Program-made: the position numbers and the translations under genes
Source: a virus
UHGV virus genome: UHGV-0085204
Length of the DNA stretch: 38,284 nucleotides
Direction: 5' to 3' (one strand)
Shown here: piece after piece, positions 32,161 to 38,234 of the stretch
Position numbering within the stretch: position 1 is the stretch's first letter
How the letters are laid out: each line of letters opens with the position of its first letter
The notes under the pieces: generated by a model
Told to the model about the DNA's origin: nothing
The model's input: the letters and a program-made list of their open reading frames with translations, nothing else
Databases searched by the model: none

Positions 32161-33456
32161 ATGGCTACTTGGCAAGGAACAAATGGCGGATTGTTGGCTG
32201 GTATCGGTGGTGTCAACTCAAACGCTCCGAACGTAAATGACATCGGCAATACGCTTCAGCTTATCAGGCAGAACAATGATATTGAGCGTTCAGGCGCTAA
32301 CAATGTTGGGCTGACTGCTTTGCAAGGCCTTTCAGGTATTGCGGGGGTGTTTCAGCAGGAAAAGCAGGCTCAGCGGCAGAAAGAATTTCAGCAGGCATAC
32401 GCTAATGCTTATGCGTCTGGTGATCGCGGTGCTTTGCGTCAGTTAGCTACTGAATATCCAGACCAGATTGAATCCGTTCGTAAAGGCATGGGGTTCATTG
32501 ATGAAGACCAGCGCAATTCTATCGGCACCTTAGCGGCTGGCGCCCGCCTTGCATCATCGTCTCCAGAAGCAATGCAATCATGGCTGCAAAACAACGCCAA
32601 GGAACTGACTCGCGTCGGTGTTGACCCTAACAGCGTTGCTCAGATGTATCAGCAGAATCCTTCAGGATTTGGTGAGTTTGTTGATCACCTTGGGATGGCT
32701 GCGCTTGGTCCGATTGACTACTTCAATGTTCAGGACAAGATGGCTGGTCGTGAGATTGACCGAGGCAGGCTGGCAGAGACAATCCGCAGCAATCAGGCAG
32801 GAGAAGCACTAACAGCTCGAGGTCAGGACATCCAGATACGTGGACAGAACATCAGCGCACAGAATGCTGCTCTTTCCCGAGAAATACAAAGAGCAGAATT
32901 ACAAGAAAAGGCTCTGGACAGACAGATAGCCAGAGAAAGCAATCAGTTAAAGCTTGAAGAGCTAAAACAGAAACAGGCAGATGTTCGGCAAAAGGCTGAC
33001 ATAGCCCGCGCTGACAGGCAGGCCGCCGCTCAGGGTGCAGTTGATACGTTCAGCACCGCGCTTGATTCTCTCAACGAGATAGAGCAAAGCCCCGGCCTTT
33101 CAAAAGCAGTAGGAATTCGCTCAGCGTTTCCGACAGTTCCTGGCTCTGATGCGGCTAACTTTGAAGCAAGGCTCGACACCTTTAAAGCTCAAACATTCCT
33201 TCCTATGGTGCAGTCCCTGAAGGGTATGGGCGCTCTTTCAGATGCTGAGGGTAAAAAATTATCCGATGCGGTTGGTGCCCTAAGCCCCAAAATGAGTGAA
33301 AAGGCTTTTCGTGACTCTATCGGAAAGATTAGAAATCAGCTTGAAAGCAAGTTGAGCACTGTTAAAAAACAGTTTGATTATCAGGATCCAGTACAGAATA
33401 CGCCAGGACAACAATCTCCTGCTGGCAGTAACTTTTCTTCACTATGGGGTGATTAA
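32161..33456 (+). CDS. Ejection protein (P22 gp20-like)
   Basis: 431 aa; position between gp7 and gp16. Confidence 0.8.
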   Translation: MATWQGTNGGLLAGIGGVNSNAPNVNDIGNTLQLIRQNNDIERSGANNVGLTALQGLSGIAGVFQQEKQAQRQKEFQQAYANAYASGDRGALRQLATEYPDQIESVRKGMGFIDEDQRNSIGTLAAGARLASSSPEAMQSWLQNNAKELTRVGVDPNSVAQMYQQNPSGFGEFVDHLGMAALGPIDYFNVQDKMAGREIDRGRLAETIRSNQAGEALTARGQDIQIRGQNISAQNAALSREIQRAELQEKALDRQIARESNQLKLEELKQKQADVRQKADIARADRQAAAQGAVDTFSTALDSLNEIEQSPGLSKAVGIRSAFPTVPGSDAANFEARLDTFKAQTFLPMVQSLKGMGALSDAEGKKLSDAVGALSPKMSEKAFRDSIGKIRNQLESKLSTVKKQFDYQDPVQNTPGQQSPAGSNFSSLWGD

Positions 33457-35453
33457 TGGCTAAAGCATGGAAAGATGTTATCGCCTCTCCACAGTATCAG
33501 GCGTTAGCACCAGAACAAAAAGCGCAGGCTCAGGAGCAATACTTCAATGAAGTCGTGGCCCCGAAAGCCGGAGAAAATGCAGAGCAGGCTAAGCAAGCTT
33601 TCTATGCTGCCTATCCATTGCCATCTGTGCATCCAGTGGAGACACAACAACCAGTAGCACAGCAACAACCACAGCAAAGTGGATTTATGTCTGATCTTGG
33701 TGAAGCCGTGAAAGAAACTGGTCGCGGACTGGTGCAGGCTGGCGTGAACGTGGCAAACATACCTGCATCAGTTGCCGATGCTGTAACAAGCGCGGCGGCT
33801 TGGGCTGGCGGTAAACTCGGCATTGGCGATGGTACATATCAACCAGCACCACGAGTAACAACGCAGGGATTAGAGCAGGACTTTGGCCTTCAGCAAGGTG
33901 CGCTGACTCCACAAACGACAGAGGGAAGGGTATTTGCTGAAGCATTGCCTTACCTCACTCCTGCTGGCGTTGAGAGAGCGGCGGTACAGGCACCAACACT
34001 TGCTGGTCGAATTGCTCATGGGGCAACTCGCCTTCTAGCAGAAAACGCAGTTGGATCACTTGCTGCAAATAGTGCGAAAGATGATGCGGAAGCACTCGCT
34101 ACCGATTTAGGTGTTGGAGTTCTGGCAGGCGGCGCTATTAACGCTGCTGGACGTGGATTAGGTGCTGCTTATCGTGGCGTTCGTGGTGCTATTGCGCCAG
34201 AAGCGCAGCAGGCTATCAGATTTGCAGAGCGTGAAGGAGTGCCTCTGCACACCACAGACCTGTTACAACCTACTTCCCGCGTCGGAAAAATGGCGCAGAC
34301 TACAGCAGAAAATATCCCTCTGGCTGGAACAAGCGGAATGAGAGCAACGCAACAGGAAGCGAGAAGCCAGTTGGTGCAGAGATTTGCTGATAAATTCGGG
34401 GAGTATGATCCAGCGGTTGTTATTGACAGCCTTAAAGCGAAAACATCAGGAATTCGTCGTGCCGCCGGTAATCGACTGGAGCAGGTTCAGAATGCTATGG
34501 CTGGAGTAAACATTCAGCCTGCGCGAGCAATTCAGCAGATTGATACAGAAATATCTAACCTGCAGAAGCTTGGTAAGGTGGCTGATAACGAGACAATTTC
34601 AAAACTTCAGTCATATCGTGATGAGCTTGTTCGCAATGCTGGCCCTGATGGTCCGGTAAATCTGGATTTGAAGCAATTAAGCGACCTGCGCAGTCAGTTC
34701 AGAATGGACGTGAAGGGTGAGCGACCAGTGTTACCAAACCGTTCCGATGCTGCCATTCAGCGCGTTTACAAGGCGATGACCGACGATATCAATGGTGCCA
34801 TTGGTCAGAATCTTGGCAACGATACTCTCCGTAAATATCAGCAGGCCAATGCCGTCTACGCTGACGAAGCGGCGAAACTAAAGAATACCAGGCTGAAGAA
34901 TGTTCTCATGAAAGGCGACCTGACGCCGGAAGTTGTCAACAACATGCTATTCAGCAAGAACAAATCGGAAATTAAGACGCTGTATAACTCAGTTGGTCGT
35001 GTTGGCAGGGTGCAAATGCGCAATGGCATCATTGGAAAGGCGATGGAGAAATCTGGCGGATCCCCTGACCAGTTCCTTCGGCAGCTTAACATCCTGCAAA
35101 ACCAGACTGGCATCACATTTAAGGGGCAGGACGCTGCTTATCTGAAAGGATTGAAAAATTACCTTCAGTCCACTCAGCAGGCAGCAAAAGCGGCAGTAAC
35201 AACACCAACAGGGCAGCAAACCATCCCGTTCATTATCGGGTATGGGACGGCAATGAACCCGGCGACAACTGGCGCAGCAGTAAGCTACGGACTTCTTACT
35301 CGCGCCTATGAGAGCGAACCATTCAGAAATGCAATGCTCCGAATGGCAAACACCCCACGCGGATCAACAGCGTTTGAGAAAGCCATGCAGCAGGCGCAAA
35401 AGGCCATTAACGCCCTGACTCAGGGTGCCAAGTCTGATGCGTTGTCAGAATAG
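33456..35453 (+). CDS. Ejection protein (P22 gp16-like)
   Basis: 665 aa; last of the three ejection proteins. Confidence 0.8.
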   Translation: MAKAWKDVIASPQYQALAPEQKAQAQEQYFNEVVAPKAGENAEQAKQAFYAAYPLPSVHPVETQQPVAQQQPQQSGFMSDLGEAVKETGRGLVQAGVNVANIPASVADAVTSAAAWAGGKLGIGDGTYQPAPRVTTQGLEQDFGLQQGALTPQTTEGRVFAEALPYLTPAGVERAAVQAPTLAGRIAHGATRLLAENAVGSLAANSAKDDAEALATDLGVGVLAGGAINAAGRGLGAAYRGVRGAIAPEAQQAIRFAEREGVPLHTTDLLQPTSRVGKMAQTTAENIPLAGTSGMRATQQEARSQLVQRFADKFGEYDPAVVIDSLKAKTSGIRRAAGNRLEQVQNAMAGVNIQPARAIQQIDTEISNLQKLGKVADNETISKLQSYRDELVRNAGPDGPVNLDLKQLSDLRSQFRMDVKGERPVLPNRSDAAIQRVYKAMTDDINGAIGQNLGNDTLRKYQQANAVYADEAAKLKNTRLKNVLMKGDLTPEVVNNMLFSKNKSEIKTLYNSVGRVGRVQMRNGIIGKAMEKSGGSPDQFLRQLNILQNQTGITFKGQDAAYLKGLKNYLQSTQQAAKAAVTTPTGQQTIPFIIGYGTAMNPATTGAAVSYGLLTRAYESEPFRNAMLRMANTPRGSTAFEKAMQQAQKAINALTQGAKSDALSE

Positions 35454-35542
35454 CTTCGCAAACACCAGGAACGTGCAAAAACCAAATATGTAGAACGCAA
35501 TATTCAGCATATCTCTTTGCATAAATCCTCCGTAACTGATGG

Positions 35543-35803
35543 TTAGCTGCTGTCTTTTTTATATAGCTCTTTGAGCGTATCAAAGACAATTTTCTTAACC
35601 ATATCAGATTGTTGTTCTGCCATACGCTCTGCATCGTCAATGTAAACTGATGCAGAGCTTTGTTTAGCCAATGATTCTTCAATCGCTGCAATTATCTCTG
35701 AGTTCAGCGACCTGTTATTCATCTTCGCACGCTGCTTAATTTTCGCGTGGAGTTCATGCGGAAGTCTCAAGTGAAACTGCGCCTCGTCGTATTTGCTGTA
35801 CAT
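35543..35803 (-). CDS. mnt: Mnt-like ribbon-helix-helix repressor (immI remnant)
   Basis: 86 aa from ATG 35803; C-terminus NDAERLAEQQSDMVKKIVFDTLKELYKK close to P22 Mnt. Confidence 0.8.
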   Translation of the reverse strand: MYSKYDEAQFHLRLPHELHAKIKQRAKMNNRSLNSEIIAAIEESLAKQSSASVYIDDAERMAEQQSDMVKKIVFDTLKELYKKDSS

Positions 35804-35876
35804 CCTTGATGCCTCACCAGTTGGGTGGAATGGCATCGTAACCTACTGGATAAATACTCAATAGTACCATTTCGGT

Positions 35877-35899
35877 ATGCAATCACATCATGGTTGCAT
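35877..35899. promoter_or_regulatory. Palindromic element ATGCAA-N11-TTGCAT between mnt and tailspike; candidate operator
   Basis: ATGCAATCACATCATGGTTGCAT just upstream of the tailspike RBS. Confidence 0.35.
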
Positions 35900-35924
35900 C
35901 ATATCATTCGTCTGGAGCAATGAA

Positions 35925-38234
35925 ATGTCAGATATCACCGCAAATGTTGTGGTAAGCATGCCTTCGCAACTCTTCACTATGGCGCGTTCTTTTAAAGCTG
36001 TAGCCAATGGCAAAATTTATATCGGTAAAATTGATACTGACCCTGTAAATCCTGAAAACCAGATTCAGGTTTATGTGGAGAACGAAGACGGCTCTCACGT
36101 TCCTGTTTCGCAGCCAATCATCATTAACGCTGCTGGATATCCTGTATATAACGGACAGATTGCCAAATTCGTTACCGTGCAAGGTCATTCGATGGCTGTT
36201 TACGATGCTTATGGGGTGCAGCAGTTCTATTTCCCAAACGTGCTGAAGTATGACCCTGATCAGTTAGAACGGAGACTTTCTTCTGGCAATGGGGCAGATT
36301 ATATAGGATACCCTGGTTATGACGATTTAACCCAATTCCTACACACTACAATAAGAACTATCGAAGAGTTCAGAGAGCCAGGATACACCGACGCACAAAC
36401 ATTTCAGGCTGCGGTGAATTCAGGTAGTGTAAGAATTCCATCTGGAACAACGATTGAAATCATCGGTAATGTTGATATCACAATCCCGGGAGACAGGATT
36501 ATTCTCGTAGAGAATGGTGGAGTCATTAAATCCAATGGTCGATTCACTGCATACGGAGTAAATAACGTCCATTGGATTGTTAACGGATTGGTTGAATGCA
36601 CTGGAATGGTGCCTGCACCTGCAAAATCAGGATGGCCTAACACTGCCGCTGGAACGCAGTCTGGGGATGAACGAGGATTTATCGAGTTCGGCGGTGTTGT
36701 ATTCGCAGGCAACGATGGATTCTGCTACTCAGTAACTGGTAATGGTAGAATACAAGGATACTGGTCAGGAACTCCAAACAATAGCGATCTGGTTAACCAG
36801 GTAAACCGGAAGGGTATAGCTGCATGGAACTGCTCTCGCTTTACAGTTAAAGGCGTTCACATAGACGGATTTGAAGGTGAGCAAGTATACTGGTTCTCTC
36901 GTAACGCCAACAACCGTGATGCGTTATTCGATAGCGTAACCAGTACTAACGCACGATTTAATGCGCTAAACATGAACGTTTATAGCGCAATGTTTAATAT
37001 AGTAATCCGTGATTGTTATACTAACGTTTCCTATAATGGGGTTGAATCATCTGCGGGAGATATAATTAACACAACACATGATGGAAGTGTGAATAGTGGT
37101 ATTCTTTTTGGTCTTGGTACCGGTGGCGGAAACCGGCTTATTGATAGTAATAAAGTCAATGATTGCCTTGGTACTCCGTATTCTTTGCTGTATAACAAAG
37201 ACTATGAGGGGCGCGGATACGTACCTATTGTTACTATCACAAATAACGTGGCCACAAATCCAGCAAACCATTTCATATGTGTATCTGGTATTTCAGGGTT
37301 AAAAATAGAAAACAACATCTGCTATGGTTTAAAGGCAGGGAAGTTTATACAGGCTACTGTAATTGAAGGTGGTGTGATAAAAAACAACACCAACTACAAA
37401 CCTAATGCTGGTACTCAACATGTATATCAAGCAGCTTGTTATTCCGTGTTTGAATCAGATAATGATCTTATAACGTTAGGAGGATCGTATGCTCCAACGA
37501 AATTGTCAGAACGTGCAATAACAGGTGGGTTAGAGTCGAACATCACCGCGTTCGGTATCAGGGAAAACTTTCATGAGTTAAGGGCAGGTAATCCGCAGCT
37601 TGCATCTGGGCCGGAATACAGATTCTCTTATGATACCGGGGTTAACTTTATAGCTGCATCGATAAGTTCGAATCTTATTGCTTATGATGGCGCAGGTGCA
37701 TCTGCCAATCTTTCTTTTAATAACCTGAAGATCAATAACTCCGACGTACTCGGTCAGTCATGGGAGATGACTACTCGCGGTTATTTATCACCCGGTACTG
37801 ATGGCACACAGGATTTTGGAGCTGCAAGCAGGAGAATAAATTCAAGTTATTTCACCGTATCACCTATTGTTTCATCTGACAAATGCTTAAAGCAACAGGA
37901 GGAGTGGCTTGATGATGCTGAGAAACGTGTGGCTTTAAAAATAAAACGGTTACTAAAAAAATATAAGTTAAATGACTCTGTGTTAAAAAAAGGAAATAAT
38001 GCAAGGATTCATATTGGTGTGATTGCTCAAGATGTAAGAGATGCATTCTTATCGGAAAATCTAGACCCTCATTCTTACGCGCTGTTTTGTTATGATGAAT
38101 GGGATGAATCTCCTGAGATTGTAGAAAGAGATGAACATGGAACATTAACAGTCAAACAACCATATATTGCATCTGGAAGCAGATATAGCATCAGGTATGA
38201 TGAATTATTATGCTTTATAATTGCTGCTATTTAG
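35925..38234 (+). CDS. Tailspike: P22 gp9-like head-binding N-terminus, beta-helix-like receptor-binding body, C-terminal intramolecular chaperone (peptidase S74-like) domain
   Basis: ATG 35925 with GGAG RBS; N-terminus [13 protein letters not shown]...[21 protein letters not shown] matches P22 tailspike; C-terminus SSDKCLK...HIGVIAQDV...[16 protein letters not shown] matches the S74 chaperone domain pattern; 3' end AT-rich by eye. Confidence 0.85.

Follow-up and report, generated by a model that had tools for sequence, protein, structure and literature searches.

In UHGV-0085204, a virus genome of 38,284 nt (the whole stretch analysed, referred to below as the window), the segment upstream of the tailspike gene appears to be an immI region of the P22 kind trimmed to a minimal, mnt-only "ant moron". 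We lean moderately toward the view that it still provides a functional repressor with its own operator and its own promoter (Pmnt), next to a tailspike gene whose expression would be independent of Mnt. Comparative sequence analysis supports this view at several levels, namely the homology and domain content of the mnt product, the purifying selection acting on it, the co-variation of its recognition ribbon with the adjoining operator, the loss of the opposing promoter Pant and the absence of arc and ant. The features discussed are collected in Table 1.

Table 1. Features of the mnt cassette and its surroundings in the window.
Feature	Position	Strand	Details
25-aa hydrophobic ORF (MQRDMLNIAFYIFGFCTFLVFAKLF)	35445..35522	-	20 nt downstream of the mnt stop; from the ORF list
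mnt cassette relative to Sf6	35524..35880	.	Sf6 homology (96%) ends at 35523
mnt-like gene	35543..35803	-	86 aa (MYSKYDEAQFHLRLP...); N-terminal ribbon-helix-helix and C-terminal Mnt tetramerisation helix
mnt 5' leader	35804..35836	-	Shine-Dalgarno GGTGAGG (reverse complement of 35812-35818); non-conserved in-frame upstream ATG 35834-35836, giving a 97-aa ORF
Pant remnant	35830..35858	+	ATGGCA-17-AATACT (P22: TTGACA-17-TATATT); column-for-column alignment
Pmnt-like leftward promoter	35835..35861	-	-35 TTGAGT (reverse complement of 35856-35861), 15-nt spacer, -10 TACGAT (reverse complement of 35835-35840)
Predicted Mnt operator (AGTACCATTTCGGTATG)	35863..35879	.	Core GTACC-N5-GGTAT, 35864-35878; same position and symmetry centre as P22 Omnt (AGGTCCACGGTGGACCT)
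ATGCAA-N11-TTGCAT palindrome/hairpin	35877..35899	+	9-bp RNA stem AUGCAAUCA / UGGUUGCAU, loop CAUCA; in the tailspike leader
Tailspike Shine-Dalgarno and start codon	35914..35927	+	GGAG 35914-35917; start codon 35925-35927
Tailspike gene	35925..38234	+	769 aa; Pfam Head_binding 5e-67, Peptidase_S74 2.6e-5

Identity of the mnt gene and its product

The minus-strand ORF 35543-35836 (97 aa) matches the Pfam family Arc (PF03869; 1e-14, residues 18-60), the family Repressor_Mnt (PF11423; 3.3e-14), which represents the C-terminal tetramerisation helix, and the solved Mnt structures (PDB 1mnt, 3e-19 over residues 6-79; 1qey, 1.7e-8). On these matches its product is assigned as a two-domain protein of the Mnt family, predicted to be tetrameric, and it shares 49% identity and the same two-domain architecture with P22 Mnt. 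The DNA-binding fold is that of Arc and other ribbon-helix-helix autoregulators, and an operator abutting or overlapping the repressor's own promoter, as found in the window, is the typical layout of autoregulation in this group. Arc itself differs in being a 53-aa dimer-of-dimers devoid of the Mnt C-terminal coiled coil, with its operator placed between the -35 and -10 elements of Pant.

The true start of the gene is most likely the ATG at 35801-35803, which is preceded at 8 nt by the Shine-Dalgarno sequence, aligns with the start of P22 Mnt and gives the 86-aa form annotated by RefSeq in E. coli genomes. The 97-aa form was rejected as the true protein: in Gally its upstream ATG lies in another frame, and a stop codon immediately precedes the 86-aa start in E1V33 (Escherichia sp.). 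With the shorter form the distance between the leftward mnt gene and the rightward tailspike gene is 121 bp, as originally predicted (about 120 bp). Within the mnt 5' leader a GATGCCT block is found unchanged in organisms ranging from E. coli to Serratia and Buttiauxella. Homologues of the gene have been misnamed: the Sf101 copy goes under "partition protein ATPase" or "chromosome segregation ATPase", and those in E. coli under "partition protein ATPase" or a generic "Arc family" protein. The copy in IME10 is unannotated.

Remains of the immI region

The mnt gene of the window occupies the same slot as the P22 immI region, between the ejection-protein gene 16 and the tailspike gene 9, where P22-like phages have their variable ant moron, and is likewise divergent from the rightward genes. 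The segment from mnt to the operator aligns column for column with Pmnt, Pant and Omnt of P22, including a symmetric 17-bp site with the same centre, and the original prediction of a degenerate immI region is thus borne out: the promoter/operator homology is retained, whereas arc, sar, ant, Tant, sieA and orf59a are missing and Pant has decayed. The predicted absence of arc, ant and sieA was confirmed by tblastn, P22 Arc, Ant and SieA finding no match in the 38-kb window, nor did Rha/KilA of JEP4. Between 35300 and 36100 neither sar RNA (at E<=1) nor any other Rfam family was matched, and the arc-ant junction that would host sar is also missing, the operator being followed directly by the tailspike leader instead of arc.

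The leftward promoter is homologous by alignment to the annotated P22 Pmnt (TTGAGA-17-TATCAT), and both its -10 block (GCATCGT) and its -35 block (CAAT) are conserved across genera. Scored with a position weight matrix of hexamer frequencies, checked against the two annotated P22 promoters only, Pmnt reaches 8.5 in the window, 9.2-11.7 in relatives and 14.3 in P22. The short 15-nt spacer is a weak point of the window subtype, and its score is no better than that of another leftward match at the tailspike start (CTGACA-17-AATGAT, 8.7); the latter was rejected as probably fortuitous, since it is conserved neither in other leader types nor in Sf6. Pant has fared far worse. Its remnant scores 6.8 versus 16.7 for P22 Pant, which is background level, no plus-strand promoter was found by a consensus scan, and the strong rightward promoter that overlaps Pmnt in immI is therefore lacking. 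The same holds for all mnt-only loci examined (<=7.3 versus 16.7 in P22), with the reservation that the 128 loci retrieved from DNA were collected with a search pattern that included the decayed -35, which biased that set against an intact Pant, a bias partly corrected by the protein-retrieved sets.

The predicted operator and the recognition ribbon

A single 17-bp site of two-fold symmetry is present beside the mnt promoter, and its sequence has no other exact match in the window. Like P22 Omnt, it directly follows the common CTCAATAG anchor. The site is imperfect in the window, where 4 of the 8 pairs in the 17-mer are symmetric and the final arm base is a T instead of a C; Buttiauxella (GTACCATTTTGGTAC) and Rahnella (GTACCTTAACGGTAC) have perfect arms. 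An operator occurs at the homologous position in 119 of the 128 loci. Elsewhere in 1.26 Mb of related loci, TACC-N5-GGTA was found only inside coding regions and lacking the flanking G/C. On this evidence, GTACC-N5-GGTA(C/T) at 35864-35878 is likely the cognate Mnt site.

The N-terminal residues reportedly set the specificity of Mnt and Arc (Knight and Sauer, 1989, as cited in PMC3413123). In this part of the protein the window carries the ribbon DEAQFHLRL, with QFHLRL in place of the HFNFRM of P22, and the operator reads GTACC-N5-GGTAT versus GGTCCACGGTGGACC; the P22 combination (HFNFRM with AGGTCCACGGTGGACCT) is not found, and the two operators share just the central CC/GG of each arm. An operator of the GTACC-N5-GGTAC type always co-occurs with the DEAQFHLRL ribbon (E. 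coli, Buttiauxella, Serratia, Rahnella). Likewise, ARDDPHFNFRMP pairs with AGGTCCACGGTGGACCT (P22 and epsilon34, with differences in the last 1-3 bases in Pluralibacter and Pectobacterium), GRDDPQFNLRLP with AAGACCAC-N-GTGGTCTT (L and Gally) and ARDDPQFNFRMPH with ATATCACGGTGATAT (Phlomobacter). Judged by these pairings, the window Mnt belongs to a different specificity class within the Mnt family, and the co-variation of ribbon and operator across four classes suggests that Mnt would bind the operator. The original prediction that Mnt may bind upstream of the tailspike gene holds in part: a candidate site lies 46 bp upstream of the tailspike ATG, though it is not the ATGCAA-N11-TTGCAT palindrome noted at the time.

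Selection, distribution and extent of the cassette

Of about 125 related loci, 119 have an undamaged mnt ORF. Over codons 1-45, encoding the DNA-binding domain, pN/pS is 0.086 with a pS of 0.40; synonymous divergence is near saturation between subtypes, and so the 119 loci do not represent a single very recent clone. The ORF is likewise intact in 213 protein clusters from several genera. The C-terminal domain is mosaic and the ribbon invariant, and the Shine-Dalgarno, -10, -35 and operator blocks are kept despite a third-codon-position identity in mnt of only 0.38-0.57. One clear pseudogene, with both a stop codon and a mutated operator arm, was found in Citrobacter.

Between the homologues of gene 16 (33456-35453) and gene 9, mnt is the only recognisable immI gene, an architecture identical to that of the mnt-only "ant morons" of the Salmonella phages L, ST64T, ST104 and SE1 and of Gally (E. 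coli). In these phages, gene 16 is followed by an opposite-strand mnt, a palindromic operator and then, within about 135-145 bp, the tailspike leader; arc and ant are lacking. The arrangement has been published for L, ST64T and ST104, where the function was left open as "another function or a remnant" (PMC2629481, PMC8022706). The L-type phages differ from the window in their ribbon (GRDDPQFNLRLP) and operator (AAGACCAC-N-GTGGTCTT), in the C-terminal mosaic and, in some cases, in an extra small gene beside mnt (orf62 or orf59a-like), while the window type has no annotated neighbour. The same module, operator and hairpin included, is present at 94-96% nucleotide identity in Sf101, IME10 (Lederbergvirus) and E. 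coli prophages, with differing tailspike bodies. It matches 417 of 5426 complete E. coli genomes (~8%, roughly one in thirteen).

The boundaries of the cassette can be drawn by comparison with Sf6, in which the tailspike leader follows gene 13/16 without interruption. The right mosaic junction falls immediately after the operator, as E. coli prophages with other leaders lose homology at about 35879-35882. On the left, the cassette supplies the Shine-Dalgarno sequence (GGAGG, reverse complement of 35527-35531) of the 25-aa hydrophobic ORF. This ORF is intact in about 120 loci and shows a pN/pS of 0.24 in frame versus 0.86 and 2.06 in the other frames (36 polymorphic sites); it has no PHROG match. 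These values are suggestive only of a possible second gene of a leftward unit. In relatives mnt stands at the head of leftward operons with cargo genes, being followed by a Rap1a gene, a ClpP-like gene or a lipoprotein gene, and in P22 by orf59a. In the window the minus strand showed no terminator-like site in the interval from mnt to gene 16; a terminator stands right after mnt in L256 and, as annotated, in phages L and epsilon34.

The tailspike gene and its leader

The tailspike has a P22-type head-binding domain; its receptor-binding body is different, its C-terminal domain is a Peptidase_S74 chaperone, and the CTGGAGCAA...ATG segment at its start is conserved in P22, Sf6, Gally and JEP4. 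The ATGCAA-N11-TTGCAT palindrome lies exactly where the original prediction placed it, at 35877-35899. A 6-bp arm with an 11-nt gap is unremarkable by itself (28 of 100 shuffles of the window match with at most one mismatch). As a hairpin, it is paired in 94% of cells across 10 variants found in relatives; E1V33 carries one G-C to U-A double change, and five one-sided changes preserve pairing, either G-U or Watson-Crick, only on the plus strand. The palindrome was rejected as the Mnt operator: loci that combine the same Mnt with another type of tailspike leader lack it, it is present in Sf6, a phage devoid of mnt, and its variation fits a plus-strand RNA hairpin. By these comparisons it is part of one tailspike-leader variant and independent of Mnt.

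Possible roles of a solitary Mnt

In the reading that we favour, trimming of immI would have left three co-adapted pieces, mnt, Pmnt and the 17-bp operator abutting the Pmnt -35, and removed the strong opposing Pant together with arc, sar and ant. In a lysogen, Mnt made from Pmnt would bind the predicted operator, set the level of its own leftward transcription unit and also silence any residual rightward initiation. This unit carries prophage-expressed cargo genes in relatives; here it would comprise just the 25-aa ORF, beyond which the transcript would continue antisense to the final part of gene 16. The tailspike gene would be expressed by read-through of the antiterminated late transcript, as in P22, and ATGCAA...TTGCAT would form a hairpin in the leader of that transcript with no involvement of Mnt. 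Binding to DNA, the direction of regulation and the benefit to the phage are all inferred here. A purely self-regulating cassette has no obvious selective value, which counts against this explanation.

A variant that we entertain only tentatively is that the DEAQFHLRL Mnt and its GTACC-N5-GGTAC operator constitute a previously undescribed specificity class kept by selection, in prophages devoid of ant, for a role of its own, either immunity in trans against antirepressor-carrying relatives or control of a leftward unit expressed in the lysogen. The latter could, as a possibility, deliver a 25-aa membrane peptide and/or an RNA antisense to the gene 16/tailspike junction that would exclude superinfecting phages.

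Immunity in trans, taken as the main role, seems rather unlikely. A prophage Mnt with no ant of its own would repress ant in P22-like phages, incoming or co-resident, with the same operator type and so spare its own C2-type repressor from the antirepressor, with the local operator serving autoregulation only. In P22 lysogens, Mnt classically serves to uphold lysogeny by repression of ant (PMC2629481, PMC7380047), and antirepressors are known to act across prophages (PMC7380047). Such a role would explain both the strong selection on the DNA-binding domain in a gene with no local target and the existence of several discrete specificity classes. However, our narrow searches revealed no phage or prophage in which this operator type or a DEAQFHLRL Mnt adjoins arc or ant: not one appeared among the 128 loci retrieved from DNA, 76 viral loci retrieved by protein or 7 contexts taken from other genera or metagenomes, nor in the phage database matches. 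The protein-based search of viral contigs for distant Mnt types returned only near-identical copies, which provide an unbiased check of context and no added diversity. The pattern TTGACA-N27-35-GTACCNTTTNGGTA, representing an intact -35 upstream of the operator, gave 28 matches in viral contigs, which were discarded as chance because none encodes an Mnt- or Arc-like protein, and no match came from a narrow pattern placing an arc-like coding start after the operator.

We regard as improbable the original suggestion that Mnt regulates the tailspike gene, whether by repressing a promoter that reads into gene 9 or as a roadblock tuning late read-through. The closeness of the predicted operator to the tailspike ATG, with no terminator found between them, would suit such a role, and the P22 immI region is thought to influence the amount of late transcription reaching gene 9, possibly with the participation of Mnt and Arc (PMC2629481, citing earlier work). 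On the other hand, this control is unsupported, given that Pant has been lost and the blocks of the leftward Pmnt remain conserved: a credible rightward promoter is lacking, the Pant equivalent was at background in two promoter scans, and its -35/-10 are decayed in every mnt-only locus examined. Moreover, the palindrome has no link to Mnt, at least four unrelated tailspike leaders are found beside this Mnt and operator, a terminator (Serratia) or an HNH endonuclease gene (Rahnella) intervenes between mnt/operator and the tail gene, and Sf6 expresses the same kind of tailspike with no mnt at all.

It is very improbable that the main product is an RNA, with a Pmnt transcript antisense to the gene 16/tailspike junction excluding superinfecting relatives and Mnt as a mere autoregulator. 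The precedent is STnc6030 of the Salmonella prophage BTP1, a prophage-expressed leftward transcript of the same gene 16/tailspike interval with a role in superinfection immunity, where the RNA alone confers immunity to BTP1 (PMC7067206); the lack of a minus-strand terminator-like site downstream of mnt in the window would also fit. Yet STnc6030 is non-coding, starts inside the tailspike gene and involves no Mnt, and an RNA of this kind is hypothetical here; a Pmnt transcript would miss the tailspike gene's 5' end, some relatives terminate transcription right after mnt, and the strong protein-level constraint on mnt indicates that the Mnt protein itself matters. Finally, the original alternative of Mnt as a functionless relic, decaying after deletion of immI, which the loss of arc, ant and Pant might suggest and which the authors of the phage L study did not close for the mnt homologue of that phage (PMC8022706), is scarcely credible, being contradicted by the ORF intact in 119 loci and 213 protein clusters, the pN/pS of 0.086, the invariant ribbon and the conserved operator and promoter blocks.

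Overall, the mnt-only layout is real, common and already described; it is largely ordinary and reveals no novel type of system. Mnt and Arc serve as textbook examples of DNA recognition by a beta-sheet, while their biology outside P22 has barely been studied, and the reason why mnt survives in phages lacking ant was left open in the phage L study (PMC8022706). What the present analysis adds is that a solo mnt is strongly constrained, that it is accompanied by a predictable operator of a new specificity, that Pant is gone and that in relatives the cassette drives prophage cargo. The choice between a relic and a new function is thereby reduced to a few simple experiments.

Identity and setting of the mnt gene

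The window comprises the genome of a P22-like (Lederbergvirus-type) phage, extending from an integrase-sized ORF to the tailspike, the last gene at its right end. The minus-strand ORF preceding the tailspike matches the Pfam families Arc (1e-14) and Repressor_Mnt (3e-14), its product aligns with both solved Mnt domains (N-terminal 1mnt, 3e-19; C-terminal 1qey, 2e-8), and its identity to P22 Mnt is 49%. The true start is almost certainly the ATG that yields 86 aa, since GGTGAGG stands 8 nt ahead of it, it lines up with the start in P22, and the RefSeq E. coli annotation uses it; besides, in Gally the upstream ATG falls out of frame, and Escherichia sp. E1V33 has a stop codon immediately before the 86-aa start. 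The resulting gap of 121 bp to the tailspike start agrees with the ∼120 bp of the original prediction. No match elsewhere came from tblastn of the whole 38 kb window, queried with the P22 proteins Arc, Ant, SieA and orf59a plus Rha/KilA of JEP4. Together with the Pfam and PDB matches, this confirms an Mnt-like gene divergent from the tailspike, with arc, ant and sieA absent. No Rfam match to the sar RNA was found. The names "partition protein ATPase" and "chromosome segregation ATPase" are widespread for Mnt homologues, as in Sf101 (NC_027398), P22 RefSeq (NC_002371) and PHROG 795; they are a propagated annotation, which the Pfam and PDB matches contradict.

Features of the window around and beyond the mnt locus
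Feature	Position	Strand	Remark
Integrase-sized ORF	50-1210	minus	
P22 gene 20 homologue	32161-33456		
P22 gene 16 homologue	33456-35453		
25-aa hydrophobic ORF	35445-35522	minus	MQRDMLNIAFYIFGFCTFLVFAKLF; 20 nt downstream of mnt stop
End of Sf6 homology	35523		
Shine-Dalgarno of 25-aa ORF	35527-35531	minus	GGAGG (reverse complement)
mnt, longest ORF	35543-35836	minus	
mnt, 86-aa start ATG	35801-35803	minus	
Pant -35 counterpart	35830-35835		ATGGCA (P22 TTGACA)
mnt, upstream ATG	35834-35836	minus	
Candidate operator	35863-35879		AGTACCATTTCGGTATG
Palindrome ATGCAA-N11-TTGCAT	35877-35899		
Tailspike, longest ORF	35877-38234	plus	
Tailspike	35925-38234	plus	
Tailspike start region with MSDIT| break	35925-35940		

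The mnt-only arrangement is already known and abundant. Villafane et al. 2008 (PMC2629481) refer to the gene 16 / gene 9 interval as the "ant moron", with only mnt and one unknown gene in ST64T, ST104 and Para1. The module is found in phages IME10 (96% identity) and Sf101 (94%), unannotated or named "partition protein ATPase", and matched 417 of 5426 complete E. coli genomes, the tailspike being adjacent in each match inspected. Retrieval by an intergenic 18-mer yielded 128 IMG/VR loci; an independent, protein-based retrieval gave 76 assessable loci, with the tail-gene start 121-135 nt from the mnt start in all but one (75/76). Other P22-like phages (Gally, SE1 and L) share this layout but carry another type of Mnt. 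In Sf6, which lacks the mnt cassette, homology to the window breaks off and picks up again in the tailspike leader.

A genome labelled E. coli DH5alpha (NZ_CP026085.1) carries, at argW (1.47 Mb), a P22-like prophage with an mnt module 99.8% identical to that of the window; such a prophage is unexpected in a K-12 laboratory strain, suggesting a mislabelled or lysogenised isolate. In VSe13 (locus L003), a 96-aa ORF (2511-2801) annotated "antirepressor protein" lies on the gene 16 side, convergent with mnt. Visual inspection suggests the C-terminal part of an Ant/KilAC-type protein; if so, the ORF would represent a degraded ant lying to the "wrong" side of mnt.

Operator and specificity of Mnt

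Alignment to the annotated P22 sequence bears out the proposed degenerate immI region: the window follows the P22 control region, arc and ant being gone, and as judged by this alignment it is a trimmed immI control region. Past a common anchor, CTCAATAG, the candidate operator shares its symmetry centre with P22 Omnt (AGGTCCACGGTGGACCT), and the changes between them keep the symmetry (positions 3/15, G..C to T..A; 4/14, T..A to A..T). Relatives with perfect arms, GTACCATTTTGGTAC (Buttiauxella), GTACCTTAACGGTAC (Rahnella-type loci) and CGTACCGTTTCGGTATG (JEP4), define the consensus GTACC-N5-GGTAC, from which the window departs by one arm base; its version, GTACC-N5-GGTAT, occurs once in the window.

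Arc/Mnt specificity is reportedly set by N-terminal residues (Knight and Sauer 1989, as cited in PMC3413123). The N-terminal ribbon and the operator co-vary, the (Y/E)DEAQFHLRL ribbon staying with its operator across at least five types of attached C-terminal domain.

Mnt ribbons and the operators found with them
Ribbon	Operator	Where	Followed by
ARDDPHFNFRMP	AGGTCCACGGTGGACCT (last 1-3 bases differ in Pluralibacter, Pectobacterium)	P22, epsilon34, Pluralibacter, Pectobacterium	arc + ant
GRDDPQFNLRLP	AAGACCAC-N-GTGGTCTT	L, Gally	tailspike
ARDDPQFNFRMPH	ATATCACGGTGATAT	Phlomobacter	arc
(Y/E)DEAQFHLRL	GTACC-N5-GGTAC	several genera	tail gene

This co-variation is the strongest computational argument for the candidate operator as the predicted cognate Mnt site. 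The expectation of an Mnt site upstream of the tailspike stands as a prediction, at a place other than the ATGCAA-N11-TTGCAT palindrome.

The palindrome lies exactly where it had been placed. It is ruled out as an Mnt site: Sf6, without mnt, has UGCAA-N11-UUGCA in the same place, and the palindrome is absent where the same Mnt goes with the "CCGTAGCCATGCTGCGG" leader. Folded as RNA, it forms a 9-bp hairpin (AUGCAAUCA / UGGUUGCAU, loop CAUCA), with 94% of cells paired across ten leader variants. One change is a compensatory double (G-C to U-A, in E1V33) and five are one-sided, keeping G-U or Watson-Crick pairing on the plus strand only. Its presence in Sf6, its absence with the same Mnt and this paired variation assign it to one tailspike-leader variant rather than to Mnt, most likely as an mRNA hairpin. 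Statistical support is modest owing to the few, related sequences, and the 80-nt fold z-score is only -1.0. Other leader types have another hairpin, either CCGTAGC-CAT-GCTGCGG or, where T-G has changed to C-G, CCGCAGC-TCT-GCTGTGG, which appears to be the "boundary sequence" present twice upstream of gene 9 in P22.

Promoters and the tailspike gene

Promoters were scored with a simple sigma-70 PWM (checked on the two annotated P22 promoters only: Pant 16.7, Pmnt 14.3). The Pant -10 (TATATT in P22) corresponds to the TAAATA / AATACT region of the window. In every mnt-only locus examined the top rightward match scored 5-7, the background level, and a consensus scan found no plus-strand promoter in the mnt-tailspike gap, whereas the leftward Pmnt homologue scored 8.5-11.7 (TTGTTG-17-TACGAT in JEP4, Serratia and Buttiauxella; TTGTGG-17-TATGAT in phage L; TTGAGT-15-TACGAT in the window, whose subtype has the short 15-nt spacer). 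Hence Pant is lost and Pmnt retained. The candidate operator adjoins the Pmnt -35 with a gap of 1 bp, a position more in keeping with autoregulation than with regulation of a rightward gene.

The tailspike joins a P22 head-binding domain (5e-67) to a Peptidase_S74 chaperone domain (endosialidase-type, intramolecular) at its C-terminus. Late read-through, with no part for Mnt, is the most likely route of its expression. The longest tailspike ORF adds 16 codons before the real start, opening at an in-frame ATG within the leader hairpin. At several loci (L028, L042, L050, L133 and JEP4), homology ends right after the first five tailspike codons (MSDIT|), followed by unrelated sequence and, further along, a second complete head-binding start, which is indicative of a recombination junction at the extreme start of the gene. 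In the Rahnella-type loci L253 and L255, the mnt control region and the tailspike are separated by an inserted HNH_3/AP2 homing-endonuclease-like gene, which lies on the mnt strand some 150-660 nt upstream of mnt.

Selection on mnt and its leftward operon

The suggestion that mnt is a relic did not hold. Over codons 1-45 of 119 complete copies, pS is 0.40 and pN 0.034 (ratio 0.086), and between the two main subtypes 23 of 25.5 synonymous sites differ, against only 9 non-synonymous changes. Despite a third-codon-position identity of 0.38, the window and Buttiauxella share the Shine-Dalgarno block, GCATCGT (the Pmnt -10, TACGAT on the mnt strand), CAAT (-35) and the operator core. For comparison, the copy in Citrobacter sp. 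is genuinely decaying: codon 5 of mnt is an in-frame stop, and the adjacent operator arm is mutated (TACT).

Trans-immunity against phages that carry an antirepressor, the classical proposal, is made less likely, as pattern searches, phage database matches and distant-relative contexts revealed no ant-type gene under GTACC-N5-GGTAC.

In more distant relatives, a leftward operon starts with mnt, and the second gene, overlapping or abutting mnt, encodes a Rap1a-family (T6SS immunity-like) protein (L253, L254), a ClpP-like protease (L258), an unknown 106-aa protein (Rahnella) or a lipoprotein (E. coli JNE132847; a homologous gene occupies the same interval in VSe13 and Gally); in P22 it is orf59a. 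Varied cargo was seen at L253/L254, L258 and L011, with a SIEA-family gene near the L258 mnt. The window has no annotated gene after mnt. The 25-aa ORF there, with a Shine-Dalgarno supplied by the mnt cassette, is unbroken in Sf6 as well as in about 120 related loci. No PHROG matched this ORF, and its pN/pS (0.24 in frame versus 0.86 and 2.06 in the other frames) is no more than suggestive. No terminator-like site was found between mnt and gene 16, so the mnt transcript may also extend antisense into the late operon. In BTP1, prophage RNA antisense to the same gene 16 / tailspike junction gives superinfection immunity (PMC7067206).

Overall, the new points are the loss of Pant in mnt-only loci, the predicted operator and non-P22 specificity of the window Mnt, the evidence for selection on solo mnt, and its link to leftward cargo operons. 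The window locus is probably a functional, autoregulated mnt-only remnant of immI.
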